Virus record (IMG/VR): IMGVR_UViG_3300048854_000069
Span: 1-48,764 of that record
Strand: one strand, 5' to 3'
Length of the DNA: 48,764 nt
DNA from: a virus
Lineage: Duplodnaviria; Caudoviricetes
Positions 32,303-48,764 of the stretch are shown one piece after another. The translations under genes and the position numbers were made by a program. Numbering within the stretch: the stretch's first letter is position 1; each line of letters starts with the position of its first letter. The notes below the pieces were generated by a model. That model saw only the letters and a list, made by a program, of their open reading frames with translations. It was not told the DNA's origin and ran no database searches.

Positions 32303-32382
32303 CATTCCCTTTGGGCGACCTGATCCCGCCATTTGGCAGGATCAGAGCACGCAACAAAGGCGGCAATTAGTAATCTTGGCGG

Positions 32383-32411
32383 ATTATAGAATCGTTTCTG
32401 GGAGTTTACAA
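32383..32411 (-). promoter_or_regulatory. Late promoter pR'
   Basis: TTGTAA-N17-TATAAT at the 3' end of the Q-like gene. Confidence 0.8.
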
Positions 32412-33305: not shown

Positions 33306-33646
33306 AGCGTCCTCGCCTCAGCACGCCGCGTGCTTTCGATAGTTCGCCAGCACTCGATTTTTGCTTCGGCGGAAACCATCATCCAGCGCAAGGTTTCCTC
33401 TTTCTCGACGGCCGCTTTGAGTGCTTCCAACACGCCGATGTAATCCGGATCGGCATATGCTTCACGCTCCTGCATAGCGGCCGTCTTGTGCCCCTGAAGC
33501 TCAGCGTCGCGCATACACAGCGATTTCTTACTTTTCCGGAAGTTTTCGAGATAGATGCGATCTGCCTTTGCCTGCGCGTATGCCGGTGCGTTATCGCGGA
33601 TCCAGTCGAGACAGCGGAAAATGTTGATCTGGCTTTCTTCGCTCAT
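33302..33646 (-). CDS. Conserved helical phage protein (nin region)
   Basis: YA.AKA....LE..RKS...QEREAYA...Y...WRT..S..R pattern. Confidence 0.7.
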   Translation of the reverse strand: MSEESQINIFRCLDWIRDNAPAYAQAKADRIYLENFRKSKKSLCMRDAELQGHKTAAMQEREAYADPDYIGVLEALKAAVEKEETLRWMMVSAEAKIECWRTIESTRRAEARTL

Positions 33647-33966
33647 GCCCACACCCGCGCCTGAATGCCGAGCGCGAGCTGCAGCGCTTCCGGGATGTTG
33701 GTTTCGATGGGCGTTTCGTCGTCAATCTGCACGCCACTGATAGGCCGCAGCCAAGCGTCGGGGATGATTCCCAGAGCGCTGCGTGACGGCTTCTTTGTTT
33801 CGGGATTGAAGCTGTTCAGTGGCGCAGACGCTTCGACAAGCCAGCAGGGATAGCGTCCTGTCCCGTGTTCGCCGCGATATTCGAGCACTTCAACGATGCG
33901 CCCCAAATTAGGTGCGCTGGAACACTCAACCACGATGTATGCAATATCGCCCGGTTTGCAGTTCAT
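33643..33966 (-). CDS. Hypothetical protein (MNCKPGD.A type)
   Basis: MNCKPGDIA...G.IVEV...D.WLRPI pattern; overlapping start/stop. Confidence 0.7.
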   Translation of the reverse strand: MNCKPGDIAYIVVECSSAPNLGRIVEVLEYRGEHGTGRYPCWLVEASAPLNSFNPETKKPSRSALGIIPDAWLRPISGVQIDDETPIETNIPEALQLALGIQARVWA

Positions 33967-34322
33967 GCTGCTCTCCCGAAAAGTGCCTCAGTCAGGGGGT
34001 CACGGAAAGGACGAATTTCGCGCTTTGCGAGCTCAAGCTTTTCCGCCATGCGCCTACGCTCGCCAAGATTCTCGCGGTACCTTCGCGCGCTACTCGAAAC
34101 GTCAGGTGCGCTACCAACTGCCCACAAGCGTTTCGAATAGGTTTTATTGCTGCCTTCAACGGAATATCCGGACACATGGATTAGTCCGGCTGCCCGTGCT
34201 GAGCTCACACGATGCTGGACAGCTGAAGCATGCAAGTGCATCTTTTCTTGCATCTGCCGCGTAGTCATCGGGCCATGCTCCTGGAGCGCCGCAAGCAACT
34301 GACCTAAGGCTGTTTGTTTCAT
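33963..34322 (-). CDS. Winged-HTH protein
   Basis: L..HGPMT..QM...M.L..S.V pattern. Confidence 0.65.
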   Translation of the reverse strand: MKQTALGQLLAALQEHGPMTTRQMQEKMHLHASAVQHRVSSARAAGLIHVSGYSVEGSNKTYSKRLWAVGSAPDVSSSARRYRENLGERRRMAEKLELAKREIRPFRDPLTEALFGRAA

Positions 34323-34639
34323 ACCGACTCCCGTTCCATCAATTCCTCAAGCCACTGAATCGCTTGCCCCGTCCGCACGTGATCGCTCGTGACGCGAAGT
34401 ACGGTCCATCCTAAAATCGCCGCGCGCGCGTATTTCTCGCAGTCGGCGGCGAAGCCGGTGCCACGTGAGTGCCGACCGTTCGTCCATGTGCCACCCTCAA
34501 CCTCAACAGCGATCTTTTCTTCGGGCCACGCAAAGTCGAGACGCCACTTGCGCGGAGCGGCAAACACGTGCTCGCGCTTGGCCGGCTGCATCTTTGCTCC
34601 GCGAATATGCAGCGCGAACAGTTCTTCGATGGCGCTCAT
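34319..34639 (-). CDS. PD-(D/E)XK endonuclease (DUF559/Vsr-like)
   Basis: RKWRLDFAWP..KIAVEVEGG...GRH...D.EKY..A...GW.VLR motif. Confidence 0.8.
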   Translation of the reverse strand: MSAIEELFALHIRGAKMQPAKREHVFAAPRKWRLDFAWPEEKIAVEVEGGTWTNGRHSRGTGFAADCEKYARAAILGWTVLRVTSDHVRTGQAIQWLEELMERESV

Positions 34640-36006
34640 TCGAACCCCCGCGAGCGCGACGACTTCTGGACCGCGTTCGTAGGCCATGGGCCAGCGTGGT
34701 TTTCGAATTTCATGAACTCTCCGCGATAGGTGAGCGCAACGTCGCCAGTGCGTCCGTGGCGAAATTTCGCAAAACGCACCTGAGCGAAGCCGAACCACTG
34801 ATCGCCGGCGTCCGGGTTGGCAACTTGCTCGCGATGTATGAAGAGCACTGCGTCGGCGTCTTGTTCGATCGACCCCGAGTCACGAAGATCGGAAAGCATC
34901 GGCAACTTGTTCGCACGTTCCTCTGACTTTCGATTGAGCTGCGCAAGGGCAATGATTGCGACGTTCAGTTCCTTTGCGAGCGCCTTCAGGCCTCGCGATA
35001 TGCCCTCGATCTCCGCATTACGGTTTGCGCCATCGCCAGTCATGAGTTGCAGGTAGTCGACGATGATCACGTCGAGGCCGGCCTTGCGCTTCACCAGACG
35101 CGCCTTTGCGCGGACGTCCAGCATGCGCAGCGCAGCTTGGTCGTCGATGTAAAGGTTAAGGTCCTTAATCTTCATCGTCGCGGCTGTGACGCGATTCCAA
35201 TAATCGTTATCGTCCTCGGGCGACTTCATGACGGTGTCCAGCGGGATGCGGCCGAGTGCAGCGAGGTTCCGATCGTGCAACTCGGACTCCGGCATTTCCA
35301 TCGATAAGAACAAAGCGCTGTGGTCGATGGCCACATGCGTCGCTATGTTCAACGCAAGAGCCGTCTTCCCCATGCCTGGTCGCGCGGCGAGAATCACCAG
35401 CCAACCCGGCCGCAAGCCGCCGTTCAGTTGACGGTCGATGTCGTCGAGGCCAGTCTTGATGACCCGGTCGGAGCCGGTGGACCGACGCTCAAGCGCGCTG
35501 ATGTGATCGGCCAGACCCTGCGCTGCGAGCTTCGGCTCCCGCTTTATCGTCGCCTCGCCGAGCGCCTCAAGCCTCGAGGATGCGCGGTCGATCAGCACGC
35601 CAGCGCTTTCCGGCGTGGCGCCGACTGAGTCCTGAATCTCGGATGCGACTGCCAGCAGCCCGCGCTTCTGCGCACGGTCTCGGACAATCTCAGCGTAGCG
35701 CGCGATGTTCACGGAGCTCGCCGTGCCCTGCGCAATATCGTTCAGATACTTCAAGCCGCCAACTGCGTCAGAGCGCCCTTCCGCCTGCAGTCGCTCGAAA
35801 AGCGTGATCACGTCGGCACCGATGCCACTTTCGATCATCTTCACGATCTGAGCGAAAATCGAACGGTGGTCGCCGCGGTAAAAATGCTCGGCGCGAAGGT
35901 CGCCGATCCGATCGATCGAATCGTTGTCGATCAGCAATGCGCCAAGGACGCTCTGCTCGTGCTCGACGCTGTGCGGAACTGCGCGCTCAATGTCGTTGGC
36001 GCTCAT
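34636..36006 (-). CDS. dnaB: Replicative DNA helicase, DnaB family
   Basis: PHS.E.EQ.VLG, AARPGMGKT, SMEM, IVDYLQLM and DLRDSGSIEQDAD motifs. Confidence 0.95.
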   Translation of the reverse strand: MSANDIERAVPHSVEHEQSVLGALLIDNDSIDRIGDLRAEHFYRGDHRSIFAQIVKMIESGIGADVITLFERLQAEGRSDAVGGLKYLNDIAQGTASSVNIARYAEIVRDRAQKRGLLAVASEIQDSVGATPESAGVLIDRASSRLEALGEATIKREPKLAAQGLADHISALERRSTGSDRVIKTGLDDIDRQLNGGLRPGWLVILAARPGMGKTALALNIATHVAIDHSALFLSMEMPESELHDRNLAALGRIPLDTVMKSPEDDNDYWNRVTAATMKIKDLNLYIDDQAALRMLDVRAKARLVKRKAGLDVIIVDYLQLMTGDGANRNAEIEGISRGLKALAKELNVAIIALAQLNRKSEERANKLPMLSDLRDSGSIEQDADAVLFIHREQVANPDAGDQWFGFAQVRFAKFRHGRTGDVALTYRGEFMKFENHAGPWPTNAVQKSSRSRGFE

Positions 36007-36779
36007 GCGGCCTCCTGGTCATGGAATCGGCCTTCGCGAATCTTTGCGAAGTTCTCGGCTTTGCAAATCCAATCCAACCCTGGCGTAAAAGGCTTTTTAT
36101 TCGCTCCGCTTACTTTCCCGGTCAAAAACGGAGACGAGCCGATGTAATCGAAGAATCGCTTCCACCAATCCAAATTTTGGCGTTTCGCGTCCTCGTTCCA
36201 GCGCACACGCAAGTGCTCAGCGCGCGCCGGAGTCCAATCTCGAATCACAGGACTCGTCGGCAAAAGTTCGTGGTACAGAGCAAGAATTTCCTGATGCGGA
36301 CAAACTGGCTTTTCAGGACGAGCACGTTTCGGCTGATGGTCGTCAGCTTGGCTGGCGACAACCAACACGTCAGTGTTGGTTAGGTTGTTCCCTTCCTTTC
36401 CCTTCCCTTCCCTTCCATCAATGAGTGCTCCGTGAGTGGTGTCGGAGTGCTCATTGCCAGACGGCATAGGTAGACCGGATTTCGATGGGCGGTTGATAAC
36501 TTGGTGCCGAGTGAAACCCTTGATGTGCAAGTACTTCTCTCCATTCACTGCATACTCAATGAGCACTCCTTGAGCAATCAACTCCTGAACCAATGGCTCA
36601 CAGTCCATCGCATCAGCAGGGAAGATTTGCATCTTCAGTTTCTTCGCCGAACGCTGAAGATTTCCGTTGTCGTCAGCAAAATTCCATGTGCCGATGAAAA
36701 ATAAACGAGCACTCAATGAGCACTCCGTGAGCTTTTCATCTGTCCAGAAATCAGGTTTGATGGTGCGAATGCGTGCCAC
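36003..36779 (-). CDS. Replication initiator protein
   Basis: MARIRTIKP.FW N-terminus, REGKGKEG linker, C-terminal F.KI.EG; GTG start with GGGAG RBS; upstream of dnaB. Confidence 0.85.
   Translation of the reverse strand: MARIRTIKPDFWTDEKLTECSLSARLFFIGTWNFADDNGNLQRSAKKLKMQIFPADAMDCEPLVQELIAQGVLIEYAVNGEKYLHIKGFTRHQVINRPSKSGLPMPSGNEHSDTTHGALIDGREGKGKEGNNLTNTDVLVVASQADDHQPKRARPEKPVCPHQEILALYHELLPTSPVIRDWTPARAEHLRVRWNEDAKRQNLDWWKRFFDYIGSSPFLTGKVSGANKKPFTPGLDWICKAENFAKIREGRFHDQEAA
36419..36731. repeat. Probable origin iterons inside the initiator gene
   Basis: CAATGAG(C/T)(A/G)CTCC at about 36419, 36444 (inverted), 36557 and 36715. Confidence 0.6.
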
Positions 36780-36780
36780 G

Positions 36781-36936
36781 TTACTTGCTCCCGATAGTGC
36801 GCACGAGCGACCGGCATAACAGGTGCACCTGTTGCTGCTTTGCCGCCTTTGTCTTCAGACGCGCTACGTTCTTCGCCATATCCATCTGTTGGCGTTTCGT
36901 ATCGGTTTCTTGAGAAAATAGGTCGGGCGCGTTCAT
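36781..36936 (-). CDS. Small hypothetical protein (51 aa)
   Basis: ATGA overlap; fills the gap before the initiator. Confidence 0.55.
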   Translation of the reverse strand: MNAPDLFSQETDTKRQQMDMAKNVARLKTKAAKQQQVHLLCRSLVRTIGSK

Positions 36937-37247
36937 GCGGCCACCTTCGGCAGCCCAAGAAGCTGCTGCGGCTTGCCCGTGGCGACGCACATCGTTTCGC
37001 CCAGCACGGCCAGCCGCTTCGCATCAAGGAGTTCGCGCACGCGGCCGCATACGCTGGAGAGGCGCATGTTTGTAATGGCCGCGATTTCTTCGCGCGTGAA
37101 AGTGCCGATGCCGGGAGCGATGTCGTCAAAGCACGCCATGACCTGCTTCTGGCGCGCTGACAACTCCCTCACGGAAATCGAGTGGAACGACGCCTGTTGA
37201 GTGGCAGCGACCCGATGCCCGGAGATCGGGCTGAAAAAATCGTCCAT
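36933..37247 (-). CDS. Winged-HTH protein
   Basis: TREEIA....MRLSSVCGRV.EL; AGGAG RBS. Confidence 0.7.
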   Translation of the reverse strand: MDDFFSPISGHRVAATQQASFHSISVRELSARQKQVMACFDDIAPGIGTFTREEIAAITNMRLSSVCGRVRELLDAKRLAVLGETMCVATGKPQQLLGLPKVAA

Positions 37248-37336
37248 CGTGGGAACTCCTGCATTTAGCAGTGCAAATCGAACAGAAGCGGTTTCTCGAT
37301 TGAAACGGCTTGTGTTTGATCTCTTCCCGACGCTGC

Positions 37337-37597
37337 TTACCGCCCTGCTACGCGCCCACACTCGTAGGAGACGCCGACGCTTGCCATCACTGTCAGCGCG
37401 CTCAGTCGTTGTGTTGAGATCAACTCGACGCCGGCAAGCCGAAGCATTGCCTTGATCTGGTCGAATCGGAAACCGCGTTGGCCTGAAAGGAAGCGGGATG
37501 TTTCCGAAGAATCGATCTTCAGTTCATCCATCGCGCGCTTGCTTTCAGGTCCGCGCAGCAGGTTGGCAATAATTTCTGTCGGATCAGGCTCAGTCAT
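37337..37597 (-). CDS. CII-like transcriptional regulator
   Basis: Downstream of cro; D.SE.SRFLSG HTH-like segment; GGGGAG RBS. Confidence 0.6.
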   Translation of the reverse strand: MTEPDPTEIIANLLRGPESKRAMDELKIDSSETSRFLSGQRGFRFDQIKAMLRLAGVELISTQRLSALTVMASVGVSYECGRVAGR

Positions 37598-37660
37598 GGC
37601 ACTTCACTCCCCGTCAAAATGTGCTGCGCCCTTTTGAGCGTCAGCGTGGTTAAAGTTGGA

Positions 37661-37864
37661 TCAAGCAGAAGAAACAGAGACAGGCTCTTCGACTTCCAGC
37701 AACAAATCCTCGAGTTTTTTGACGATCTCGTAGGACGTGCGCTTACCTCGCGTTCCCTTGTAAAGGTGCGAGATGGTGGACTGAGAGATCCCGGTTCGGC
37801 GCTGAATCTCAGATTGATTCAGGCCTCGGGTCAGAAGTCGTTCGATTAGGGTCTGTGCGTTCAT
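37661..37864 (-). CDS. cro: Cro-like HTH repressor
   Basis: GLNQSEI.RRTGISQSTISHL XRE HTH; divergent from cI. Confidence 0.85.
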   Translation of the reverse strand: MNAQTLIERLLTRGLNQSEIQRRTGISQSTISHLYKGTRGKRTSYEIVKKLEDLLLEVEEPVSVSSA

Positions 37865-37939
37865 GTACTTGAGCATATTGCATTTGTACTCGATGCGCAA
37901 GTACCAAAACACTTGACTAGCGATATTACAATTGCAATT
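37865..37939. promoter_or_regulatory. oR: divergent pR/pRM with three 14-bp operators
   Basis: ATTGCATTTGTACT (37877), degenerate AGTACCAAAACACT (37900), ATTACAATTGCAAT (37925); minus-strand TTGCGC-N17-TATGCT; plus-strand TACAAT at 37927. Confidence 0.75.
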
Positions 37940-38521
37940 ATGAAAACCCTATCTGACCGCGTGCTTAACCGGCGCACCGAACTGAAAATGTCTCAGGCAG
38001 ACCTAGCAAAGGCGTCGGGCATTTCTCAGTCGACCATCGCGCAGATCGAGTCAGGTCGGAACAAAGGATCGAAGCATTTGTTGGCGTTGGCAGATGCCTT
38101 GATGGTTGAAGCTCGTTGGCTGCAGCACGGCGGCCGAGCGGCAATGGAAGAACTGCGCGAAGCGGTTGTGCCTCATATTCCGGATGACGACCTGTCAAGA
38201 ACGATGCAAGAACTCAATGCCGCAGTTCACGGTTTTCCAAGCAGGTTTTCGCCCACCGTTGCAGTTCTGCTTCGAATGTTGATCGAATCGATTGAGGCCG
38301 GCGTTCCTGCAGTACGTCTTCAGGCAATCCAAGCAATGTTCGAGGCTCTACTCGATGCTCAGAAGGCAAAAATGCCCTCAGATCGATCAATCGAGTCTGA
38401 AGCCCCCGCTTCAAAATCTGAACAAGTGTCGAAAGGTCGAGCCGGGGTGAAAGCCGCGCTGCCTGAAACCGAAAATTCAGATAAAAGTGGCCATGAGAGA
38501 CGAACCGGGACAGAGCGATGA
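37940..38521 (+). CDS. cI: CI-like repressor (XRE HTH; no recognisable S24 peptidase domain)
   Basis: MSQADLAKASGISQSTIAQIESG HTH; helical, low-complexity C-terminus. Confidence 0.8.
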   Translation: MKTLSDRVLNRRTELKMSQADLAKASGISQSTIAQIESGRNKGSKHLLALADALMVEARWLQHGGRAAMEELREAVVPHIPDDDLSRTMQELNAAVHGFPSRFSPTVAVLLRMLIESIEAGVPAVRLQAIQAMFEALLDAQKAKMPSDRSIESEAPASKSEQVSKGRAGVKAALPETENSDKSGHERRTGTER

Positions 38522-38729
38522 CAACGTCATTGAGCTTGCAACATTTCGCAGGCCTGCAGCGGCAAAACAGCGAGAAGAGCGCAAATCATCAATACATATC
38601 GATGTAGACGACGCAGGCGAACTTGATTGCACGCCCCTTCGCGTGCACCCTGATCACGCTCTGACGCTATTGTCAGCATGCATTGAACTGTCCGGCCATT
38701 TACTGGACGTGTACTCGCACCGAAGATAG
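38493..38729 (+). CDS. Small protein overlapping the cI 3' end
   Basis: DNVIELATFRR motif typical of small phage regulators. Confidence 0.55.
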   Translation: MRDEPGQSDDNVIELATFRRPAAAKQREERKSSIHIDVDDAGELDCTPLRVHPDHALTLLSACIELSGHLLDVYSHRR

Positions 38730-38738
38730 CCACTTAAA

Positions 38739-39152
38739 ATGAAAAAAATCGGTTTGTTGTCAAAAATCAATGCCGGAGTAGCCGTCTCAGCAGCAATGCT
38801 GTTGGCGGGTCCCGCGCACGCCGATGTGCTGGTGAACGACCAGGTGCTGCCGCTGATGGAAAAAATCCCAACGCATGATGGCTGGACGCTTGCGGACTTT
38901 AAGCGGCGTAATCACCTCAAAATTTTATCGGCTCTTGCAGGTCCTGCGGAGCCCGAGGAGAACCTGCGTCCAACCGACTACGTGATCGACGTCATGTTCG
39001 ACCGGACCGAAAACTTCGACGACTTTCCCTGCGACCTCAAGCACATCGCCGGCGGTGGCTACGCGCGCTATGTGAAGCGCGGCAAGAAGTATCTGCCGGA
39101 CGCCCCACTCGCGGAATACCTGACGACCGGTCGCTGCCCGACAAAAGATTAG
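38739..39152 (+). CDS. Exported protein in the immunity operon
   Basis: Signal peptide ending AHA; two Cys. Confidence 0.65.
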   Translation: MKKIGLLSKINAGVAVSAAMLLAGPAHADVLVNDQVLPLMEKIPTHDGWTLADFKRRNHLKILSALAGPAEPEENLRPTDYVIDVMFDRTENFDDFPCDLKHIAGGGYARYVKRGKKYLPDAPLAEYLTTGRCPTKD

Positions 39153-39234
39153 CGGGCCAAATCTCAACGCGCCTCAAACAGCGTAAAGCAGCCTTCGATC
39201 CACATAAGCCACAAATTCGCTGTTACAAATTTCA

Positions 39235-39276
39235 GTTGCAATTGTACTTGCGCTTATTAAGTACATTTGCAATACT
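39235..39276 (+). promoter_or_regulatory. Early promoter pL1 with two repressor operators
   Basis: TTGCGC-N17-AATACT overlapped by GTTGCAATTGTACT (39235) and AGTACATTTGCAAT (39260). Confidence 0.8.
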
Positions 39277-39315
39277 ACGTCCATGCGCTGAACAGTTCGG
39301 TGCACGGAGGGTGAG

Positions 39316-39612
39316 ATGAAAGCAGCAACGGTCGTAGAAGTTGAGCGCATGCAGCAACCCGTTTTCGACAGCGAGCAGTCTGCTGGCGATGACCGGGCCG
39401 ACGCAGAAGCCGAAGTGAAGGCTAAGGCGCATGAAGCAGTTCGGTTTATTGACATCATCGACGAGCTGACGGAAACAGACGAAATGATGCTGATCAACCG
39501 AATCCAGCAGTGCCGGAAAGGCGCCGCGCATGACGTTTTTAAGATTTTCAGCGCAGCGCACGACCGAGCAGTGAAATCAGTTGCCGCAAGCATTGCGAAA
39601 GCGTCCAACTGA
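39316..39612 (+). CDS. Hypothetical protein
   Basis: GGAGG RBS; first gene after pL1. Confidence 0.7.
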   Translation: MKAATVVEVERMQQPVFDSEQSAGDDRADAEAEVKAKAHEAVRFIDIIDELTETDEMMLINRIQQCRKGAAHDVFKIFSAAHDRAVKSVAASIAKASN

Positions 39613-39713
39613 AAAACGAATGCAGGACGTTTGCAGTTGCCAGTTCGGGGAGCTGGCAGCGACAAGCGCCTTGCGGTCAGTAGTACTGATGTCTTACCAA
39701 CACAAGGAAAACC

Positions 39714-40985
39714 ATGACAACCGAACTTGTAGTACCGGACAAGATCGAATCCGCATCAAGCCAGTTGATCACGATCGAGCCCAAGAAATACGTAGAACTG
39801 GTATTTGCTCCGTTTAAGACGAAGCTCGCTGCGGCAATTGAAGCAGATTCCGAAGTGAGGTTTGACATCACCACAACGGCAGGGATGGCTGTTGCTGTAA
39901 AACGGCGTGCGGTCTTTCGCGATGAGATCCGAATTGCAACAGAAGCAGCGCGCAAAGAGCGCAAAGCCCCGATTCTCGAAATCGGGAAGTTGCTCGACGA
40001 GGGCGCAAAGAAGATCTTTGCTCAGGCCGAGCCATATGAATCGAAGTACGACGATCTGATCACCGCCGAAATACGTCGTAAGGAAGCGATCAAGATCGAG
40101 CAGCGCCGTGTCGAGGAAGAGCGCCAGGCAAAGATTCAAGCAGCCATCGACGACATTAAGGCTTTCGCCGTTCGTGTCGCGGGGAAGTCATCAGCTGAAA
40201 TTGACAAAGCATCGGTCGAACTTGATTTTTTTGAGATCGCTTACGAAAGATTTGGAGATCGTACCGGCGAGGCAAGTCTTGCTAAATCGAACACCATTCA
40301 AAAGCTGTCTGAGATGCATGACGAAGCGCTGGCGCGCGAGCAGGAAGCAGCGCGTGTAGCCGCGCAGCTGGAAGCCGACCGGATCGAGCGCGAACGCGTG
40401 GCCGAAGCGAACCGCGCCGAGTCCGATCGCCTGGCGAAGCTGGCACGCGAAATCGAAGAGCGTGACGCCGCCGCACGGGCCGAAGAGGATCAGCGCAACC
40501 GTGCTGCCGCCGAAGCGCGCGCCAAGGCCGACAAGGAAGCCGAAGATCGACGCGCAGAACAGGACCGCATTGCTGAAGCGAACCGCGTCGCCGCACAGAA
40601 GATACTCGACGATCAAGCCGCCGCACTTCGCGCCCAGCAAGAAGCCGCCGACAAGGTTGCACGGGATGCGCGCGAAGCCGAGGAAAAGAAAGCGGCCGAG
40701 GCGCGCGCCGAGGAAGAACGGATTGCGCGCGAAGCACGCGAGGCAGAACAACGCAGACTGGACGCTGAAGCAGGCGAAGCTCGCAGAATCGAACAGGAAG
40801 CTGCAGATGCTGAGCGCGCGGCTGAAGAAGCAAAGCATGCCGCTGACAAAAAATTGCGTGACGCCGCGCCTTTGTTGCTTGCTGCCCTTGAAGAACTTCT
40901 TGCTTATGGCCTAAAGATGAGTGCAAAGCATGAAGCTCCGTCATTCCAAAGAGCTCGCGATGCGATCGCAGCTGCCACTATTTAA
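39714..40985 (+). CDS. Long coiled-coil protein preceding the recombination genes
   Basis: E/A/R-rich heptads; RKE.KAPILE.GKLLD motif; AAGGA RBS. Confidence 0.75.
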   Translation: MTTELVVPDKIESASSQLITIEPKKYVELVFAPFKTKLAAAIEADSEVRFDITTTAGMAVAVKRRAVFRDEIRIATEAARKERKAPILEIGKLLDEGAKKIFAQAEPYESKYDDLITAEIRRKEAIKIEQRRVEEERQAKIQAAIDDIKAFAVRVAGKSSAEIDKASVELDFFEIAYERFGDRTGEASLAKSNTIQKLSEMHDEALAREQEAARVAAQLEADRIERERVAEANRAESDRLAKLAREIEERDAAARAEEDQRNRAAAEARAKADKEAEDRRAEQDRIAEANRVAAQKILDDQAAALRAQQEAADKVARDAREAEEKKAAEARAEEERIAREAREAEQRRLDAEAGEARRIEQEAADAERAAEEAKHAADKKLRDAAPLLLAALEELLAYGLKMSAKHEAPSFQRARDAIAAATI

Positions 40986-41000
40986 TCACCAGGAGCCGAG

Positions 41001-42119
41001 ATGGCCGATACCGATACACGTTCGTTGAGCACAATCGTTTCCGAACCCGAGATGCCACGCGAAGACACCAGCAGTGCAGCACTGATTTTGTCCGGTGACG
41101 CGATGGATCGTGCAATCAAATTCGCTGACCTCATGGCCACTGGTCGGTCGACGGTGCCAAAGCATCTGCAGGGCAACCGTGGCGACTGCCTAGCTGTAAC
41201 GATTCAGGCCATGCAGTGGGGAATGATGCCGTTCGCCGTTGCGCAGAAAACGCATGTAGTGAGCGGCACACTCGGTTACGAGGCTCAGCTTGTCAATGCC
41301 GTTATCACCGCGCGTGCTCCAGTCACTGGCCGCATGAACTACGAATGGTTCGGTGATTGGGACAAGATCGCAGGACGCTTTAAAGAAATACCCGCGAAGA
41401 ACAATCCGGGTGAGATGCGCATCGTCAAGGACTGGACGATTAAGGATGAGGAAGGCCTTGGCGTGCGGGTATGGGCGACATTCAAGGGCGAAGCCGAACC
41501 GCGCGAACTGCGCTTATTGCTTGCGCAAGCCGGCGTTCGAAACTCTCCGCTGTGGGGGCAAGATCCGAAGCAGCAACTTGCATACCTTGCTGTTAAGCGC
41601 TGGTCACGTCTGTATTGTCCGGACGTGATTCTCGGCGTCTATACCCCCGACGAACTAGAAGAGCGCGCACCGCGCGACATGGGTAAAGCCGATGTGTTGC
41701 AGCCGGATCAGCCTGTTGCGTCCGACGAGTTACTTCGCCAAGCACAGTCCGCAGCTGATAAAGGCGTTGGCGAGTATCAAAAGTTCTGGTCGGCGACGAG
41801 TAAAGAGAATCGGAAATTGCTCGCGGGCGAGCACGAAGCGCTGAAGCGAACCGCTATCGACGCAGACAGAAACCGCACCGTTGATAACGTCACCGACGTT
41901 GATGACAAGCCAGCAACCAGTACCGCTCAGACTGCCAGTGCGCCCGCGATTAGTGCAGACGAAGTGTCCGCCAATATGGCAAACGCTGCAGAACGCAACG
42001 ATATGGAGAGTCTTCTCGCTGCTGCCGACATGATCCGGGCAGTGACCGATGAGCAGCAGCGCACGAAGCTCAGCAAGCAGTTTGCGGAATTGCGTGAGCA
42101 ACTTGAGGGAGCACAGTAA
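41001..42119 (+). CDS. recT: RecT-family single-strand annealing protein
   Basis: VP.HL.G..GDC.A...QA.QWGM.PFAVAQKT...G.LGYEAQL, W..DP.QQL.Y and GVYTPDE motifs. Confidence 0.85.
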   Translation: MADTDTRSLSTIVSEPEMPREDTSSAALILSGDAMDRAIKFADLMATGRSTVPKHLQGNRGDCLAVTIQAMQWGMMPFAVAQKTHVVSGTLGYEAQLVNAVITARAPVTGRMNYEWFGDWDKIAGRFKEIPAKNNPGEMRIVKDWTIKDEEGLGVRVWATFKGEAEPRELRLLLAQAGVRNSPLWGQDPKQQLAYLAVKRWSRLYCPDVILGVYTPDELEERAPRDMGKADVLQPDQPVASDELLRQAQSAADKGVGEYQKFWSATSKENRKLLAGEHEALKRTAIDADRNRTVDNVTDVDDKPATSTAQTASAPAISADEVSANMANAAERNDMESLLAAADMIRAVTDEQQRTKLSKQFAELREQLEGAQ

Positions 42120-42754
42120 TGAAATTGATTCACTGTGAACAAGGTAGTCCGGAATGGCACGCAGCTCGCGCCGGGTGTATCACCGCGTCCATGTTCAAAG
42201 TCGCGCGATCACGTCTCAAGAAAGATAACCGACCCACTGAGGCTGCGCTTAACTATGCGTTCCGGACAGCAGTCGAGCGGATCGCTGGTGCTCCCCTTGA
42301 TGAGGGGTTTGAGACATGGCAGATGCGACGCGGACATGATCTGGAACCGGCTGCACGCCTGGCTCACGAAACGTCCGCTGGCGTCATGGTGCAGAGAGCT
42401 GGATTCGTGACGACCGATGATGGGTTGTTTGGCGCCAGCGCCGACGGACTGATTGACGAGGACGGAGGCAGCGAATACAAGTGCCTTGTGTCACCCGAAG
42501 GCCTGCGTGACGTTCTTTTAGCCGATGACATCTCGGAGTTCGCCGACCAGATCCAAGGTTGCATGTGGATAACGGGCCGGAAGTACTGGCACTTTGCGCT
42601 CTACTGCCCAGCTCTTGAATCTATCGGAAAGGAATTGTACTGGCGTCGAATCGAACGCGACGACGACTACATTGAAGCGCTAGAGGTAGACCTCATGCAG
42701 TTTGCGGCTTTGGTTAGCGAGTACGAGCGAACGCTTAGGTATCAGGCGGCATAG
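42119..42754 (+). CDS. YqaJ / lambda-exonuclease-family 5'-3' exonuclease
   Basis: QGSPEWH.AR.G.ITAS, RG..LEP.AR, GAS.DGL, EYKC and Q.QG.MW motifs. Confidence 0.9.
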   Translation: MKLIHCEQGSPEWHAARAGCITASMFKVARSRLKKDNRPTEAALNYAFRTAVERIAGAPLDEGFETWQMRRGHDLEPAARLAHETSAGVMVQRAGFVTTDDGLFGASADGLIDEDGGSEYKCLVSPEGLRDVLLADDISEFADQIQGCMWITGRKYWHFALYCPALESIGKELYWRRIERDDDYIEALEVDLMQFAALVSEYERTLRYQAA

Positions 42755-42838
42755 TTTCCCGAGGTTTCCGGTGATCCATAGCGTGCGCTTGCGTGCGCCA
42801 AAACCGGCCAAACTTATTTTCGAGTAGTATCAAAAATA

Positions 42839-42880
42839 ATCGCAAATGTACTTGCATTGCATGAGTACATTTGCAATACT
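42839..42880 (+). promoter_or_regulatory. Second early promoter pL2 with two repressor operators
   Basis: TTGCAT-N17-AATACT; ATCGCAAATGTACT (42839) and AGTACATTTGCAAT (42864); same layout as pL1. Confidence 0.8.
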
Positions 42881-42927
42881 TCTCTACATGCACTCAGCCA
42901 CGGTGGCGAGACGAAACGGGAAAAGAA

Positions 42928-43077
42928 ATGAACCGCGCTCAATGCGACAACGATCTGCTTCAAGCGTGCGACCAAATACATGCAAAGACCGCTGTTGCTG
43001 CGGTTATCACTTTAGTAGGCGTGGGCTTTATCTGGTTCTTGTGCGTGGCGATACCAGCGGGAGCTCTTTGGAAATGA
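42928..43077 (+). CDS. Small TM protein
   Basis: MNRAQCDNDLL...single TM; ATGA overlap with the next ORF. Confidence 0.6.
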   Translation: MNRAQCDNDLLQACDQIHAKTAVAAVITLVGVGFIWFLCVAIPAGALWK

Positions 43078-43196
43078 AGCTTTGGCAAATCTGGGCAATC
43101 ACATTTTTAGTCGGCAGCGCGTACCTGATTCTGTGCGCTGAGATTGATTACCGTGCAGCGCGGTCCGAACGCTGTTCCGTTATGCACTGCACTTAA
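43074..43196 (+). CDS. Small TM protein (40 aa)
   Basis: MKLWQIWAITFLVGSAYLILC... Confidence 0.55.
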   Translation: MKLWQIWAITFLVGSAYLILCAEIDYRAARSERCSVMHCT

Positions 43197-43218
43197 CTGC
43201 TCCCGAAAAGGCTCACCC

Positions 43219-43377
43219 ATGAACACACTTCACTTCGCACTCCTTCTCTGGGCATTCGCAGCAACGGCGGTTGTTCTGTTCATCTACGGCGCCGCGATTG
43301 ATGACGGCGGCCACAAGGCACGGCGCGAAGCGGAACAGCGGGACGCCTGGGCGGATCGGATTGCGGCAGGTCAGTAA
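43219..43377 (+). CDS. Small TM protein
   Basis: MNTLHFALLLWAFAATAVVLFIYGA... Confidence 0.6.
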   Translation: MNTLHFALLLWAFAATAVVLFIYGAAIDDGGHKARREAEQRDAWADRIAAGQ

Positions 43378-43472
43378 CGAAGCATCTCCGAATTGATAAC
43401 TGGCCCCGGCTTAACCGGGATGGTGACTCAAGCAGGAGGCGTTATGCAAATGGCGGGAGAAAGCCCCGCAAA

Positions 43473-43524
43473 GATCGAAACCGCTGTGAAGCGGTCTTCC
43501 GGTAGAGCCGGAACTGACGAGATC
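43473..43524 (+). ncRNA. Hammerhead ribozyme, type II topology
   Basis: GATC-GAAA-CCGC(TGTGAA)GCGG-TC^-TTCCGG(TAGAG)CCGGAA-CTGACGA-GATC: all core nucleotides (CUGANGA, GAAA, GUC triplet) and three perfectly paired stems. Confidence 0.9.
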
Positions 43525-43554
43525 GTATCCAACTAACTTCGAGGAGTTACCAAC

Positions 43555-44034
43555 ATGTTTCGCAAAGCAATCGCAGTAGCAGCATTCGCAGTCGTGTTTG
43601 TCGGTCATGCCCAGGCATCGGGCATCGAAGGTGGTGTTGTGGTCGGCGCCGGCGCATCGGCATTCGGCGGCAGCGTGTCCGGTTCTGCATCGAGCATCAG
43701 CAACGGCAACGCGGTAACGGCTGCGCAAGTCGGCGGCACGGGCAAGTCGTTTCAGTCGGCCAACGGTTCGACGGGCGGCACGGCAACCATCGGTGGCACG
43801 GTGAACGCTGGCGGCGCCACGGTCGGCACGAGCACCACGCAGTACAGCAATTCGGCAGTCACGGGTCACGCAGTTGGAAATGCGCCGACGAATGTCGGTG
43901 ATTCGATCGCGAACGGCGGCGCAGCGTATGGCAACACGACCACGGGCGCAGTCGGTACGGCTCAGTTCGCTACCGGTGCAATCGGCGCAGTGGCAGGCAT
44001 TGGCGGTATCGCAGCAATCAACTACGTCCACTAA
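43555..44034 (+). CDS. Secreted Gly/Ala/Ser/Thr-rich protein
   Basis: Sec signal ending AQA; GAGGAG RBS; low-complexity beta-prone mature region with no Cys. Confidence 0.8.
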   Translation: MFRKAIAVAAFAVVFVGHAQASGIEGGVVVGAGASAFGGSVSGSASSISNGNAVTAAQVGGTGKSFQSANGSTGGTATIGGTVNAGGATVGTSTTQYSNSAVTGHAVGNAPTNVGDSIANGGAAYGNTTTGAVGTAQFATGAIGAVAGIGGIAAINYVH

Positions 44035-44099
44035 GCAGCGGACATCCGATCAACAAGGTGCAGGCCGGCTGGAACCCGGCCTGTTCCCCGGAGCCAAAA

Positions 44100-44633
44100 A
44101 TGAAAACGACTTTCATCGCCCTCATCGTTTCGCTCTTCGCAGCTAGCTCTGCGATGGCTGAAGTTTCCAGCAATGCCACGAATACGTCAACCACGGCTTC
44201 GACAGCCGGCGCGACCAACGCAGGGAACGCGCAAAACCTCGCACTGAACAGCTATGCACCCGGCAGCCAGACAATTCGCACGACCGGCAATGCGGTTGTG
44301 AGCGGCTTTGCGGGTTCGTTCTCATCCGATTACTGCGGCGGCACGATGGGCGGCTCGGTCGGCGCACCCGGCGTCGCGCTCGCATTCGGCGGCCCGAAGA
44401 TAGATCAATCGTGCGTGATGCTTCGCACCTTCGAGCGCGTCCAGCAAGCAGCCGTCGCCGATCCAGCAAACGCACGCGAGCTGCGCAACGCCGCGCTCGA
44501 CATCCTGGCTGAGATCGATCCGAAGATTCGCGCCATCTTCGTGAAGCACAACCTAGTTGACGGCGAGCCGACGGCGACAGCGATCACAACGAATTCCAGC
44601 GGGCAGCAAGTGTACGCGACCGCTCAACCCTGA
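44100..44633 (+). CDS. Secreted protein with Ser/Thr/Asn-rich N-terminus and Cys-flanked Gly-rich hairpin
   Basis: Signal ending AMA; DYCGGTMGGSVGAPGVALAFGGPKIDQSC; GGAG RBS. Confidence 0.8.
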   Translation: MKTTFIALIVSLFAASSAMAEVSSNATNTSTTASTAGATNAGNAQNLALNSYAPGSQTIRTTGNAVVSGFAGSFSSDYCGGTMGGSVGAPGVALAFGGPKIDQSCVMLRTFERVQQAAVADPANARELRNAALDILAEIDPKIRAIFVKHNLVDGEPTATAITTNSSGQQVYATAQP

Positions 44634-44641
44634 GAGACATC

Positions 44642-45289
44642 ATGCCGAACCACATCACGAACAAGATCAAAGCACCGACGCATGTTATCGCGGCCCTTGT
44701 CAACGAAAAGGGCGACGTGGATTTTCGCCGTGTCATCGACTTTACTGGCGAATTCCCGTTCAACGGCGTGAGCATGGCCGCCGAAACAATCGCTGAAAGC
44801 GTTGTCGGTAAGGGCTTGAGTGACTTTGAACCGTTGGCGGCGCTGCAGGCACACAGCCGCGCTAAGACGAAGATTCAGGATCTCACCGACGAATGTTTTG
44901 AGCAGTTCGTGCAAATGCTGCGCAACTTCCGCAAGTGCGGTGTTTTCCACAATATGGATTTTGCCCGCGAGCAATGGGGAACGAAGTGGAACGCCTACGA
45001 GTGCGAGGTCGACATCGAGGCCGGGACCGCAAAGTTCAACACCGCATGGAGCTGCCCAGAGCCGGTGCTCGAAAAGCTTTCGCGTCAATTCCCCGTCGAT
45101 TTGATTGAAGTTACTTTCGCCGACGAAGACATCGGCAGCAACTGCGGAACGTTCACGCTGAAGAACGGCGAAACGGTTGCATCCGACATCGCTCCGTCGT
45201 GGAGCAACCAGAGCGATGCAGAGAAAGCTAAGTGGCGAGCCTTTGCCTACGACGTCAAGGGTTGGACGCCCGACGAAGACGAAGAGTGA
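44642..45289 (+). CDS. DUF1281/YubB-like ferredoxin-fold protein
   Basis: MPNH..N, WGTKWNA, F.TAWS.P and ADED.G.NCG motifs. Confidence 0.7.
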   Translation: MPNHITNKIKAPTHVIAALVNEKGDVDFRRVIDFTGEFPFNGVSMAAETIAESVVGKGLSDFEPLAALQAHSRAKTKIQDLTDECFEQFVQMLRNFRKCGVFHNMDFAREQWGTKWNAYECEVDIEAGTAKFNTAWSCPEPVLEKLSRQFPVDLIEVTFADEDIGSNCGTFTLKNGETVASDIAPSWSNQSDAEKAKWRAFAYDVKGWTPDEDEE

Positions 45290-45343
45290 TTCTGATCAAC
45301 CGCGCCGCGGCTGCATCGCGCGCTAACCACTGAGGAAAAGATC

Positions 45344-45703
45344 GTGAATATCAGCCATCTCGCCGCTGTAGCCATCAAGAAATCTGGCATCGCAAATTGG
45401 GAACCGTACTTCTATGAGGTCGTTGGCTCGGATGCTTTTCTGATCAAAGGCGGAATACCTCGCTTGCTGAAATCGGGTCCGCGCAAAGGACAAAAGACTT
45501 GGGATGCGAAGTCGGCGACGAAGCTGATCGTAACCAAGATCGAGGTTGCTGCAGAAAGAGCGCGCTATGAACGGGAGACGGGCAATTGCTCGAATTGCTT
45601 TGGCGAGGGAAAGGTCACCGCAAGTGCTCGGATGCAGGGCACTGAGGTCATCAGAACGTATCGCCCTTGTCCCAACTGCTCCGCAACCGGCAAAGCCGAC
45701 TGA
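45344..45703 (+). CDS. Protein with C-terminal DnaJ-like zinc finger
   Basis: CSNCFGEG...CPNCSATG; GTG start after GAGGA; flanked by 16-bp direct repeats. Confidence 0.7.
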   Translation: MNISHLAAVAIKKSGIANWEPYFYEVVGSDAFLIKGGIPRLLKSGPRKGQKTWDAKSATKLIVTKIEVAAERARYERETGNCSNCFGEGKVTASARMQGTEVIRTYRPCPNCSATGKAD

Positions 45704-45729
45704 TCTAACCGCTAACCACTGAGGACGAT

Positions 45730-46143
45730 ATGAAGCTGAGCGAGAACGCAATTCAATGGCTGGCGAACGGTGAGCGCGGGCTTAGCAGCGAAACGATCTT
45801 TGCGACGATCACGGGGATGAAAGTTGGCGACTACCCAGACAAATCGCATCCGTATGACCCTGGTGACCTTCGCCGGTGCAGGTTGTTGCTTGATGCATGC
45901 CCTGAGATTGCTGAACGCCTGTCGCTGATGGCGCTCGTTTCGTCAGCATGGGCCGCGCTAACACCGCGCTGGCAAGAGCTCTGTGCAGTGATGGACGAGG
46001 AAACGCCGAACTGGCGCACACCCAGCCGATTTGACACCGCGCCAAGACCGTACGACGCAAGACGCGCCCGACGCACACCGGAAACATCGATTCCGCGCAC
46101 TACGTTTCTGAAGACGGCGGCCCGCGCCTGGTGCGCAGCGTAA
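45730..46143 (+). CDS. Conserved phage protein whose C-terminus runs out of frame into a methylase remnant
   Basis: WL..GE.G.SS, P.DP.DL.RC..LL motifs; the sequence after about 46041 belongs to the methylase frame. Confidence 0.6.
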   Translation: MKLSENAIQWLANGERGLSSETIFATITGMKVGDYPDKSHPYDPGDLRRCRLLLDACPEIAERLSLMALVSSAWAALTPRWQELCAVMDEETPNWRTPSRFDTAPRPYDARRARRTPETSIPRTTFLKTAARAWCAA

Positions 46144-46400
46144 TCGATGTCAGCAACGAACACGGCAAAGCGTTTCACCCGACCCAAAAGCCGCTGGGCA
46201 TTCTGGCGCCGCTGATTGAGTACTCGGTTCCGCGCGGCGGGATCGTGCTGGACCCGTTCCTTGGAAGCGGATCGACCGGTATCGCCGCGAAGCTGCTTGG
46301 GCGCCATTACATCGGCTGCGAGCTGGACCCTGCGTGCGTGCAGATGCAGGAAGCGCGGACACGCCAGCCAGGCCTGATGTTGGAGCAAGCGTGTTCCTAG
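46035..46400 (+). pseudogene. 5'-truncated N6/N4 DNA methyltransferase (beta class) remnant
   Basis: HPTQKP...LI..S...G..VLDPFLGSGST..A; in-frame stop at 46032; catalytic DPPY half absent. Confidence 0.75.
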
Positions 46401-46576
46401 ATGCCTACGCACGCGCCGCGATCAAAGCGCTGTATGCGTTTCTGGCAGCAGCCGTGCCGACAGACGTTTTGATCTACGCGTTGCTTACCGCTGTCATGGA
46501 ACTGGTGAACAAGCGATCAGGGTTGGATGTGCGGGTAATTTTCGGTGACGTCCAGATAACAAGACGAGGTAAGTGA
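46391..46576 (+). CDS. Small hydrophobic protein
   Basis: GTG start with GGAG RBS; overlaps both neighbours. Confidence 0.5.
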   Translation: MFLDAYARAAIKALYAFLAAAVPTDVLIYALLTAVMELVNKRSGLDVRVIFGDVQITRRGK

Positions 46577-47058
46577 TGCAAATGCCATCGATTCTCGACC
46601 CGTGCTGTGGGAGCCGCATGTTTTGGTTCGACAAGAAAAATCAGGGGGTTTTGTTCGGCGACATCCGCGATGAAGAGCACGTTCTTTGTGATGGCCGCTC
46701 GCTGAATATCACGCCGGATGTGCTGATGGATTTTCGCAAGATGGAGTTTCCAGACAGTACCTTTCGCCTGGTCGTATTCGATCCGCCGCACCTTCGCCGA
46801 GCTGGCCCAAATAGCTGGTTGAAGGCGAAGTACGGGATGCTTTCTGATGACTGGCGCGCGGATTTGCGGAAAGGCTTTGCTGAGTGTTTCCGCGTGCTGA
46901 AAGACGAAGGGATTTTGATATTCAAGTGGAACGAAACACAGATCAAGGTTAGCGAGATTCTCGCGCTGACAGATCACAAGCCACTGTTCGGGCACGTATC
47001 CGGGAAGGCGGCGAACACGCACTGGATCACGTTCATGAAGCAGCACGCGAAACCATAG
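46573..47058 (+). CDS. SAM-dependent (probable DNA adenine) methyltransferase
   Basis: ILDPCCGSRMFWFDK, VVFDPPH and GF.EC.RVLK..G.LIFKW motifs. Confidence 0.85.
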   Translation: MMQMPSILDPCCGSRMFWFDKKNQGVLFGDIRDEEHVLCDGRSLNITPDVLMDFRKMEFPDSTFRLVVFDPPHLRRAGPNSWLKAKYGMLSDDWRADLRKGFAECFRVLKDEGILIFKWNETQIKVSEILALTDHKPLFGHVSGKAANTHWITFMKQHAKP

Positions 47059-47077
47059 ACGCATAAGGACAACCATC

Positions 47078-48355
47078 ATGAACAAATGGATTATCGATGA
47101 GCCGACGTTACTACACATTATGAGTGTAGCGATTGGCGCAGCGTATGTAAGCGTCGAGGACGCATCAAAACGTCTTGGAGTTACCGCTCCAATCCTGCAA
47201 GCCGCCACTCGCGACGCGTCGGAACAATGCAAGTGTCGTCAACTCGGCGATTGGAAAGGCTTTCATCACCCGCTATGTGATGGAGCCGACTCTTTGCAAA
47301 GCTTCAGCGTGTGGTTAAACGAAAACCGAGATAAGGACGTTTCCGCAGTATTTCACGACATCGTAGCTCGCGTAAAAGATATGCAAGCCGCCACTCGCGA
47401 CCCACAACCCACCGGCTGGTTGCCAACCGCCGAGAACATCAATGCGCTTCCCGAGCCGATCCGAGCCTACATCATGGGGCTGGAAACGAACGCTGATCCA
47501 GCAGGCATGGTGCGTGAGAACGCGATCTTGCGATACGACAACGCTGAGTTTGAATCACGTCTTGCCGCCACGAGCGACGCGCCCCAAGGCGGGTTGACGG
47601 ATGATGCAACGCAAGCTGACTTGTGGCGATATGCGAAACAGCTTGCAAAAAATCAGGGCTATTCGACTGTCGAAGCCGCGATCAAAGCCGCCCCCGCCAA
47701 TCCCATGCAAGCGCATCCATCAATAGCAAGGGCGATCACTCAGGAAGAACGAGCATGCCGCGCCGAAGACGCCTTGATTAATTTGGTCAATCAAATTAGG
47801 AAGTCGAATCCCGTTGACGACCATGGGCACGACTTGAAAATGAATCGTGCGTATATTGAAGCATCGAAATTGCTTGATTCGAGTGACGCCAATCCCATTC
47901 AAGCGAGCCAAGATATTCGAGGCGGGAATGATCGGCATTTTTATGAATTGCTGAATGCATACGAGTCTGCCGTTCGAGAATTGCAAGCCACTCCGCAAGC
48001 ATTAGTGCATCTTCAAGAAAAGAAGGATACAGCGCGTCTCACCTTGATAAAAGCTTTTGAAAACCGCATCGCCCCAACTGCTGATGATGCAAAGCCTGTC
48101 GGGGAGGCTGTGGACTTGCACGAGGTCATTCATATGGCCCGGCAAAGCTGGCAACACCAATGGACTTACACGGTCGAAGATATTATCGCCGCCACTGCGC
48201 AAACTCCCAAAGAGGTTGCGGTAGATACAGAGCGCGGTAAGTGGGCACTGGCATATCTCGAATCCGAAGGGTGGACTGTGCAAGGCATTGACCGTCAAAT
48301 TGCTATCGACAGGGCTATCGTTGCCAGCGCGCCGAAGGGAGATGGAAATGCTTAA
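47078..48355 (+). CDS. Mosaic multi-module accessory protein (Ea22/Ead-like architecture)
   Basis: Segments separated by repeated QAATRD and ANP(M/I)QA linkers; ends in the ASAPKGDGNA junction repeat. Confidence 0.75.
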   Translation: MNKWIIDEPTLLHIMSVAIGAAYVSVEDASKRLGVTAPILQAATRDASEQCKCRQLGDWKGFHHPLCDGADSLQSFSVWLNENRDKDVSAVFHDIVARVKDMQAATRDPQPTGWLPTAENINALPEPIRAYIMGLETNADPAGMVRENAILRYDNAEFESRLAATSDAPQGGLTDDATQADLWRYAKQLAKNQGYSTVEAAIKAAPANPMQAHPSIARAITQEERACRAEDALINLVNQIRKSNPVDDHGHDLKMNRAYIEASKLLDSSDANPIQASQDIRGGNDRHFYELLNAYESAVRELQATPQALVHLQEKKDTARLTLIKAFENRIAPTADDAKPVGEAVDLHEVIHMARQSWQHQWTYTVEDIIAATAQTPKEVAVDTERGKWALAYLESEGWTVQGIDRQIAIDRAIVASAPKGDGNA

Positions 48356-48637
48356 GTGCCCACAATGCCAAGGTGGCGGCTATGTCACGCACGCGCTTGG
48401 CGAAGGCAAGTGCTCAGTTTGCAAAGGAACCGGCTATATAGAGCAAGCCGCACGCGCCACGCCAGCGGACCAAGTAGAAATGAAACTTCGCCGACTCATG
48501 GGGGCGATCAATTCTTATGAGAAAGCGACAGGGATTGGCGGATGGTACGCAGAGCAAGTGCAAGAAGCATCCAACAGCTTGCTAAAGGCATTAGGCAGCG
48601 AAATACGTTTCGGTCTAGGCGATGAAAACCCTATCGC
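48322..48637 (+). repeat. 316-bp tandem cassette unit (identical to 1-316)
   Basis: Unit bounded by TGCCAGCGCGCCGAAGGGAGATGGAAATG at 48322, 48638 (=1) and 317. Confidence 0.85.
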
Positions 48638-48671
48638 TGCCAGCGCGCCGAAGGGAGATGGAAATGCTTAA
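48348..48671 (+). CDS. Zinc-finger cassette protein, copy B
   Basis: Same as 27-350 except the last residue (GNA vs GND). Confidence 0.7.
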   Translation: MLKCPQCQGGGYVTHALGEGKCSVCKGTGYIEQAARATPADQVEMKLRRLMGAINSYEKATGIGGWYAEQVQEASNSLLKALGSEIRFGLGDENPIAASAPKGDGNA

Positions 48672-48764
48672 GTGCCCACAATGCCAAGGTGGCGGCTATG
48701 TCACGCACGCGCTTGGCGAAGGCAAGTGCTCAGTTTGCAAAGGAACCGGCTATATAGAGCAAGC

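Follow-up and report, generated by a model that had tools for sequence, protein, structure and literature searches.

The stretch at 43473-43524 raises the question of whether an early transcript of this phage is cut by a hammerhead ribozyme of its own and, if so, what the cut does for the genes behind it. The window, that is the whole 48,764-nt stretch of DNA analysed, is a complete virus record with direct terminal repeats from a soil phage. It encodes an integrase, cro-like and cI-like regulators, a RecT-like protein and an exonuclease (PHROG-type annotation), and the phage is therefore taken to be temperate. The nearest named relatives of the genes downstream of the stretch belong to Caballeronia and Paraburkholderia, which suggests a Burkholderiaceae host, and the host is probably a member of that family. 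Phage hammerheads have been known since 2011, when Perreault et al. described type II hammerheads near prophage genes and proposed that they process transcripts into gene-length mRNAs (PMC3088659). Tandem prophage hammerheads cleaved in vitro and in E. coli, and 14 of 18 tested consensus hammerheads were active, 4 of 18 being inactive (PMC3088659). The chemistry of the class and its end groups (2',3'-cyclic phosphate and 5'-OH) are established, and a 2019 review described the roles of bacterial self-cleaving ribozymes as largely elusive (PMC6765202).

We found that 43473-43524 holds a complete type II hammerhead motif, the sole one in the phage (Table 1). An earlier sequence-only reading had listed its elements, and on checking the letters each of them was where that reading had placed it, including the cleavage site predicted after C43496, 58 nt ahead of the ATG at 43555. 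Only stem III had to be redrawn, as it had been given as 4 bp (CCGC/GCGG) and has 5 bp (CCGCT/AGCGG) below a GTGA tetraloop of the GNRA type. The topology is type II as read, with an intact core, stems I and III closed by loops and stem II open. Hammerhead positions are numbered here by the established convention; the core shows CUGAnGA, GAAA and an NUH triplet in which H is not G, namely GTC at 43494-96, and U1.7 is the first base of loop I, at 43503. The stretch had been described as an intergenic leader, but it is not plainly non-coding, being covered by a 30-codon ORF led by a Shine-Dalgarno (SD) sequence.

Table 1. Features of the early region around the hammerhead (window coordinates; L437 is a second prophage carrying a homologous element).
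Feature	Position	Strand	Remark
Likely early promoter and inverted-repeat operator	42842..42880	+	Twin of 39237-39277; putative promoter function
Operator arms, -35-like TTGCAT, 17 nt, -10-like AATACT	42842-52 and 42864-74 (arms); 42852-57 (-35-like); 42875-80 (-10-like)	+
Three small ORFs with hydrophobic stretches	42928-43077, 43074-43196, 43219-43377	+	Would remain on the 5' cleavage product
SD of the short ORF, AGGAGG	43434..43439	+	Anti-SD pairing -10.3 kcal/mol
30-codon ORF across the entire hammerhead	43444..43536	+	Stop 4 nt ahead of next SD
5-bp GC hairpin, GAAAG loop, upstream of ribozyme	43453..43469	+	Pair probability 0.98-1.0
A preceding stem II; predicted to contact U1.7	43472..43472	+	Conserved in the U1.7 form
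Stem II, 5' strand GATC	43473..43476	+	Pairs with GATC 43521-24
Core G12 A13 A14 A15.1 (GAAA)	43477..43480	+	Identical in L437
Stem-loop III, 5 bp, GTGA tetraloop	43481..43494	+	In L437 both bases of 2/5 pairs differ, with 0 pairs broken
U16.1 and C17; predicted cleavage 3' of C43496	43495..43496	+	Kept in L437
Stem-loop I, 6 bp TTCCGG 43497-502/CCGGAA 43508-13, 5-nt loop TAGAG	43497..43513	+
Core C3 U4 G5 A6 N7 G8 A9 (CTGACGA)	43514..43520	+	Identical in L437
Stem II, 3' strand GATC	43521..43524	+	Pairs with 43473-76
SD of the glycine-rich gene, GAGGAG	43541..43546	+	-8.4 kcal/mol
159-aa Gly/Ala-rich protein, signal-peptide-like N-terminus (by eye)	43555..44034	+	14 relatives
9-bp hairpin after the glycine-rich gene, possible 3' stabiliser	44060..44084	+	Predicted fold
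177-aa protein, signal-peptide-like N-terminus, two invariant Cys	44100..44633	+	73 relatives

A pairing scan for all three topologies on both strands of the window gave exactly one match, and in 60 of 60 windows simulated with an order-3 Markov model there were 0 matches at loose or strict settings. The comparison with Rfam that had been suggested beforehand came out in part: RF02276 matches 43473-43534 (E 0.001 on 1.5 kb, E 7.9e-6 on the whole record), but with 30.1 bits against a gathering cut-off of 37, so that the element is not a member of the family by score and a standard Rfam scan reports nothing. Nor does the element form part of a tandem array, since one hammerhead was present in the 48,764-nt record and one in 19 kb of genome G425.

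A homologue was present in L437, an otherwise dissimilar 61.8-kb prophage which has only three short stretches in common with window positions 30000-48764, one of them being 43427-43535. It was retrieved by a pattern lying entirely upstream of the ribozyme, the hammerhead then being seen at equal spacing, and its hammerhead therefore counts as independent. The two elements differ at 15 of 52 ribozyme positions, 12 of which make up six compensated pairs while 3 lie in loops. The compensated pairs (2 in stem III and 4 of the 6 in stem I) amount to 6/11 pairs with 0 broken, and the changes spare 13/13 core bases, U1.7 and the A preceding stem II; the cleavage triplet of L437 is AUC. The sequence-only reading had named covariation in related prophages as a check, and these six compensated pairs with an intact core supply it and indicate selection on the fold. 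Stem II is invariant between the window and L437, and is therefore without covariation support from true homologues; a covariation count on 63 aligned sequences was circular because these had been selected for pairing. The L437 record had zero match to RF02276 at E <= 1, and the gene behind its hammerhead differs from the glycine-rich gene of the window. Among contigs from sequencing runs, X3 and X5 span the ribozyme and differ in it only by A43512G, by which a U-A pair of stem I becomes U-G. X4 and X6 resemble the window over 43472-43539, a stretch of 68 nt in which there are 8 substitutions (2 of them identified) and 4 gaps, X4 being identical to the window across 43513-43539; their similarity begins exactly at A43472, and their upstream DNA is unrelated to the window and mutually unlike. 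X7 has GAAC at the 3' strand of stem II, in an alignment that excludes the partner strand. The comparison left out X1, which may be the source sample, and X8-X24, whose shares were small; none of the 24 runs listed was an RNA run, which carries no information on expression.

When characterizing the structural form of the element, we drew two samples of phage type II hammerheads. A loose pattern run over 1/64 parts of the viral collection gave an unbiased sample of 128 loci with 34 distinct type II hammerheads, and a second pattern, fixing GATC as stem II, retrieved 109 loci. These contained 91 distinct hammerheads, of which 79 had the form called here the U1.7 form. This form, in which stem-loop I has 17 nt and stem II at least 3 pairs, made up 15/34 of the unbiased sample. 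Its members had U at the first base of loop I in every case (15/15 and 79/79) and A directly 5' of stem II in 14/15 and 79/79, neither the loop U nor the flanking A being imposed by either search pattern, and a pseudoknot of at least 4 pairs was possible in 0/15 and 3/79 of them versus 11/19 of the other unbiased matches. We also observed that phage type II hammerheads fall into two groups, one with U1.7, a stem-loop I of 17 nt and no pseudoknot, the other with a stem-loop I of mostly 22-24 nt and a pseudoknot.

The window element is of the U1.7 form, with a 6-bp stem I, an unpaired T43503 and A43472 next to a 4-bp stem II. The pseudoknot of the RF02276 type between loop I and the 3' tail (at least 4 pairs) is absent from it by inspection, as within the 10 nt that follow stem II its loop TAGAG finds no more than 2 Watson-Crick partners. 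Judged by sequence, the element is a hammerhead in class and type II in topology, and lies outside RF02276 both by score and by pseudoknot. Fig. S5 of Perreault et al. gives scores for a U..A type of contact in type II hammerheads both with and without a pseudoknot (PMC3088659), and the non-pseudoknot form is therefore not new. The minimal fast hammerhead (O'Rourke et al., via PMC11875169) similarly leaves a U unpaired at the seventh base past the cut and has an A next to a stem II of 4 bp. Its A, however, closes the GNRA loop that caps stem II, whereas in the window stem II is open and the A lies 5' of the stem. We infer from the conservation of both bases that a U1.7-A tertiary contact docks stems I and II in the window element, matching in its anatomy the U1.7-A(L2.4) trans-Hoogsteen contact of the minimal hammerhead (PMC11875169).

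In predicted folding, the hammerhead is the minimum-energy structure of the isolated 61-nt element. Stem II has a probability of 0.45 in this element, which drops to 0.06-0.24 once 133-243 nt of context are included, while stems I and III stay mostly above 0.7; the folding energy of 43440-43560 is ordinary (z -1.14). The SD of the glycine-rich gene was predicted to be about equally accessible before and after the cut, and cleavage as a switch of this downstream SD was rejected since the cut hardly altered its accessibility.

The transcript concerned would come from the likely promoter upstream of three small ORFs (Table 1), with a transcription start near 42887. This promoter-operator element and its twin at 39237-39277 carry the same -10-like box, and related half-sites lie in the gap separating the cro-like gene from the cI-like gene, at 37879 and 37936 (region 37863-37940). 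The operator motif had 6 of its 8 matches in the three regions, where shuffles give 2.2 in total. The promoter had been called a repressor-controlled pL2, and the operator with its -35-like and -10-like boxes, the near-twin and the cro/cI half-sites make this a fair inference, although a sigma-70 consensus scan flags no promoter at 42842-42880. A consensus scan showed no plus-strand terminator between 41513 and 45579. The first small ORF (42928-43077) matches phrog_28640, a family of unknown function, and the membrane location of all three was judged by eye only.

We consider it rather probable that the ribozyme cuts this early transcript and provides the downstream genes with a fixed, hairpin-capped 5'-OH end, on an mRNA that outlasts the upstream piece. 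Transcription would start at the operator-bearing promoter near 42850 and be followed by self-cleavage after C43496. The 5' piece, about 610 nt long, would retain the three small ORFs and end in a 2',3'-cyclic phosphate inside the short ORF, and the 3' piece would begin with a 5'-hydroxyl and the stem I hairpin, in a 58-nt leader before the first predicted secreted-protein gene. Without the 5'-monophosphate that stimulates RNase E, and with stem I as a cap, the 3' piece would outlive the 5' piece. Substrates with a 5'-hydroxyl are indeed poorly cleaved by the 5'-sensing route of RNase E, but its direct entry cuts whatever the 5' end (PMC4191395), which counts against this reading. In RiboJ the mRNA rises about twofold (PMC6206723), and by analogy the present unit may behave as a portable "cut plus ribosome-binding site" cassette. 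Splitting of the transcript with a 5'-OH end 58 nt before the ATG, the role given by the sequence-only reading, is plausible and had already been proposed by Perreault et al. in 2011 (PMC3088659). An SD and start codon followed within 75 nt in 10/15 and 45/79 hammerheads of the U1.7 form versus 472/4000 random windows. In genome G269 (L482, G269:C1:57963-59010) three U1.7-form hammerheads stand in tandem, each before a single small gene; model R1, with 78 candidates scored in each of 69 genomes, gave at least 1/69. Against the cutting of the transcript into a capped mRNA stand the weak stem II in long context, the RF02276 score below the cut-off, the small effect of the cut on SD access, the 4 of 18 consensus hammerheads that proved inactive, and a downstream gene pair that does without a hammerhead elsewhere. 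Moreover, ribosome traffic along the overlapping ORF might prevent the ribozyme from folding.

This ORF has the strongest SD among the 188 plus-strand ATGs of the early region, its pairing energy being reached by only 2/188 in 37900-48700, both using AGGAGG 43434-43439. The predicted cut falls inside it, after codon 17 plus 2 nt and 53 nt past its ATG. L437 keeps the SD, the ATG, the 30-codon length and the stop position (TAG for TAA, 2 nt before the next SD) with a diverged spacer, and the SD and ATG are kept with varying spacer in the window, L437 and a third temperate phage, L411. The peptide is not conserved, as 10 of 12 changed sense codons between window and L437 are non-synonymous, and an SD-led frame crossing the ribozyme is present in only 2/124 other phage type II hammerheads. 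These observations bear on a different reading, which we regard as unlikely: translation would gate the ribozyme, with ribosomes from the strong SD keeping the hammerhead unfolded and coupling into the downstream gene, and a drop in initiation on the short ORF (by stress, host shut-off or a protein on the hairpin codons 4-9) would allow folding and the cut. The chance is comparably small that ribosome traffic thus switches between a coupled polycistronic and a hairpin-capped mRNA, the upstream piece being left stop-less. Such gating agrees with the strength of the SD, the retention of SD and ATG, the equal length and the stop-to-stop change in L437, the rarity of the overlap, and an unconserved peptide, as expected if the act of translation matters; it agrees also with the island in common with G425, which spans from just before the SD to the stop. 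Yet the frame is present in only two lineages (the window with X3 and X5; L437), so that as a leader peptide it has a strong conserved SD and ATG with the frame kept in one independent homologue only, and an open frame over about ten changed codons is likely by chance (~0.6, our own estimate). X4 and X6 keep a hammerhead-like stretch behind other upstream DNA in place of the window's, and L411 has the SD, ATG and hairpin with no hammerhead after them; therefore, the two modules may be joined merely by recombination. A scan for the SD-ATG-loop pattern added no third case, as 35/37 stretches had neither hairpin nor hammerhead.

The position of the cut also suggested nonstop decay. tmRNA-linked nonstop decay is an established process, and a cut inside an ORF with a strong SD, 53 nt past its ATG, would leave the upstream piece stop-less, with ribosomes stalling after codon 17, tmRNA rescue and fast clearance of the mRNA of the three small ORFs, which would widen the contrast between the two pieces. 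We hold this to be improbable, as a conserved stop beyond the cut is unnecessary for such a role and hairpins at the 3' end of the 5' piece might delay exonucleases.

The GC hairpin between the SD and the ribozyme is identical in L437 and has 6 bp with one swapped pair in L411, and between window and L437 the 29 nt upstream show higher conservation than the ribozyme does (28/29 versus 37/52). The SD-ATG-hairpin block was common to the early leaders of three dissimilar temperate phages (window 43434-43469, L411:2629-2664 and L437), and over the first nine codons 3/4 changes between window and L411 were synonymous, with one hairpin pair swapped. Between cI and recT, L411 has a long non-coding stretch rich in hairpins (L411:2480-3100), for which Rfam gave no credible match. 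The upstream module was found in 0/69 genomes of one genus; 3/95 matches in another genus (3 mismatches) were rejected as they had no SD and lay in non-phage-looking contexts, and similar GC hairpins therefore arise elsewhere. The hairpin presumably resembles a lambdoid nut site (boxA-boxB).

The downstream gene pair, in turn, was found in many places. Its genes occur together in 106 of 171 fetched loci, many from Achromobacter and Bordetella genomes, and the pairing scan and model R1 found a hammerhead in 0 of the 171. The 106/106 loci holding both genes, including the syntenic Caballeronia prophage L131, are thus without hammerhead, and the ribozyme is therefore neither required by nor tied to these genes. 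L131 has a long multi-hairpin leader (L131:5203-5457) in the slot of the hammerhead and a different strong hairpin at the place of the window's 44060-44084 hairpin. By eye the leader recalls c4 antisense RNA, a likeness we do not claim, Rfam having given 0 matches. In an Allopusillimonas locus, L182:3871-4058 carries an RT-15 RNA (RF03018, 154 bits) about 1.4 kb upstream of the same gene pair. C79 and C105 of the 177-aa protein are invariant in 27 aligned sequences, and neither downstream protein matched a PHROG, Pfam or named atlas family, the atlas matches being uncharacterised. The couple of Gly-rich and Cys-pair genes is also present in phages such as phiAxp-2, and as a guess it may be a phage-carried pair of surface-fibre subunits.

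Both sets of observations would fit a hammerhead that is carried along as a passenger. It would be a mobile module exchanged between the early operons of phages, whether active or inactive, and would hardly affect the genes that follow; the SD-ATG-hairpin block would be a separate element such as an antitermination (nut-like) site. The gene pair lacks a hammerhead at all 106 other loci that have both genes, L131 has a different structured leader there, and the better-conserved upstream 29 nt recur in the early leader of L411. We nevertheless think this very improbable, because six compensated pairs and an invariant core indicate selection on the fold, and no N-like antiterminator was identified among the window proteins by PHROG and Pfam. 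There is even less to be said for cleavage lowering downstream expression in the manner of glmS, by removing coupling and exposing the 3' piece to decay. Decay of glmS mRNA depends on the 5' exonuclease RNase J and the host here is probably of the Burkholderiaceae, and a 5' hairpin usually protects; such repression would nonetheless fit the short-ORF stop, which sits in the arm of a predicted weak hairpin partly covering the next SD. In glmS itself cleavage does lead to decay (PMC6765202).

Among known systems, the closest is the type II hammerhead of Perreault et al. (RF02276), which has the same open stem II, closed stems I and III and full core, lies between small early phage genes before a start codon, and was proposed to cut polycistronic RNA (PMC3088659). 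The window differs in having no pseudoknot, a 4-bp rather than 2-bp stem II, a score below the Rfam cut-off, a single copy instead of a tandem array and an overlapping SD-led ORF (PMC3088659); the word "translation" is absent from the main text of that paper. HHphage of haloviruses HF1/HF2 also stands just before an early phage gene, with a mapped mRNA 5' end near the cut, but it has a variant core, belongs to an archaeal virus and lies 13 nt from the start codon, with no overlapping ORF reported in the passages on it (PMC3088659). RiboJ likewise yields a fixed 5' end by self-cleavage, with a hairpin ahead of the SD, but is engineered, was tested in E. coli and has no upstream ORF across the ribozyme in the description given (PMC6206723). 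glmS, too, lies in a bacterial leader and links self-cleavage with gene expression, but it has another fold, needs a metabolite cofactor and represses by cleavage (PMC6765202).

In a search of the phage collection 3 records were related by DNA, through protein genes only and with the ribozyme outside the matches, and the 118-nt unit had 13 matches at E 4, all at chance level. The plasmid collection held zero close DNA relatives, 43384-43620 gave 6 matches and 0 spanning the ribozyme among 397 scored Burkholderiaceae-level genomes, and 0 of 21 scanned RecT-related loci had a hammerhead. Three viral stretches from a core-plus-tail pattern, identical around the match, were rejected as having no hammerhead stems by inspection. 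Elsewhere in the window, neighbouring ORFs in 47078-48671 and 301-1122 end in or share identical short peptides (two terminate in the same nine residues), which suggests repeat-bounded gene cassettes, a likeness that comes partly from the record's terminal repeat; at 46131-46400 there is a short DNA methyltransferase-like ORF, possibly a fragment, in which only the C-terminal part of the family was matched.

The locus is real, conserved and of a known kind, and its unusual, testable feature is the overlapping SD-led ORF. Searches of the open-access literature gave neither a paper describing translation of an ORF across a natural hammerhead nor a description of a regulated natural hammerhead. 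The U1.7 form made up 15/34 of the unbiased sample and both copies tested lie under the Rfam cut-off; therefore, routine annotation may undercount such ribozymes. As a test case the locus is compact: it combines one ribozyme and a promoter candidate with a homologue whose compensated stems precede a different gene, and with relatives in which the same downstream genes lack a ribozyme. It would be a regulated natural hammerhead if translation of the overlapping ORF took place and controlled cleavage.
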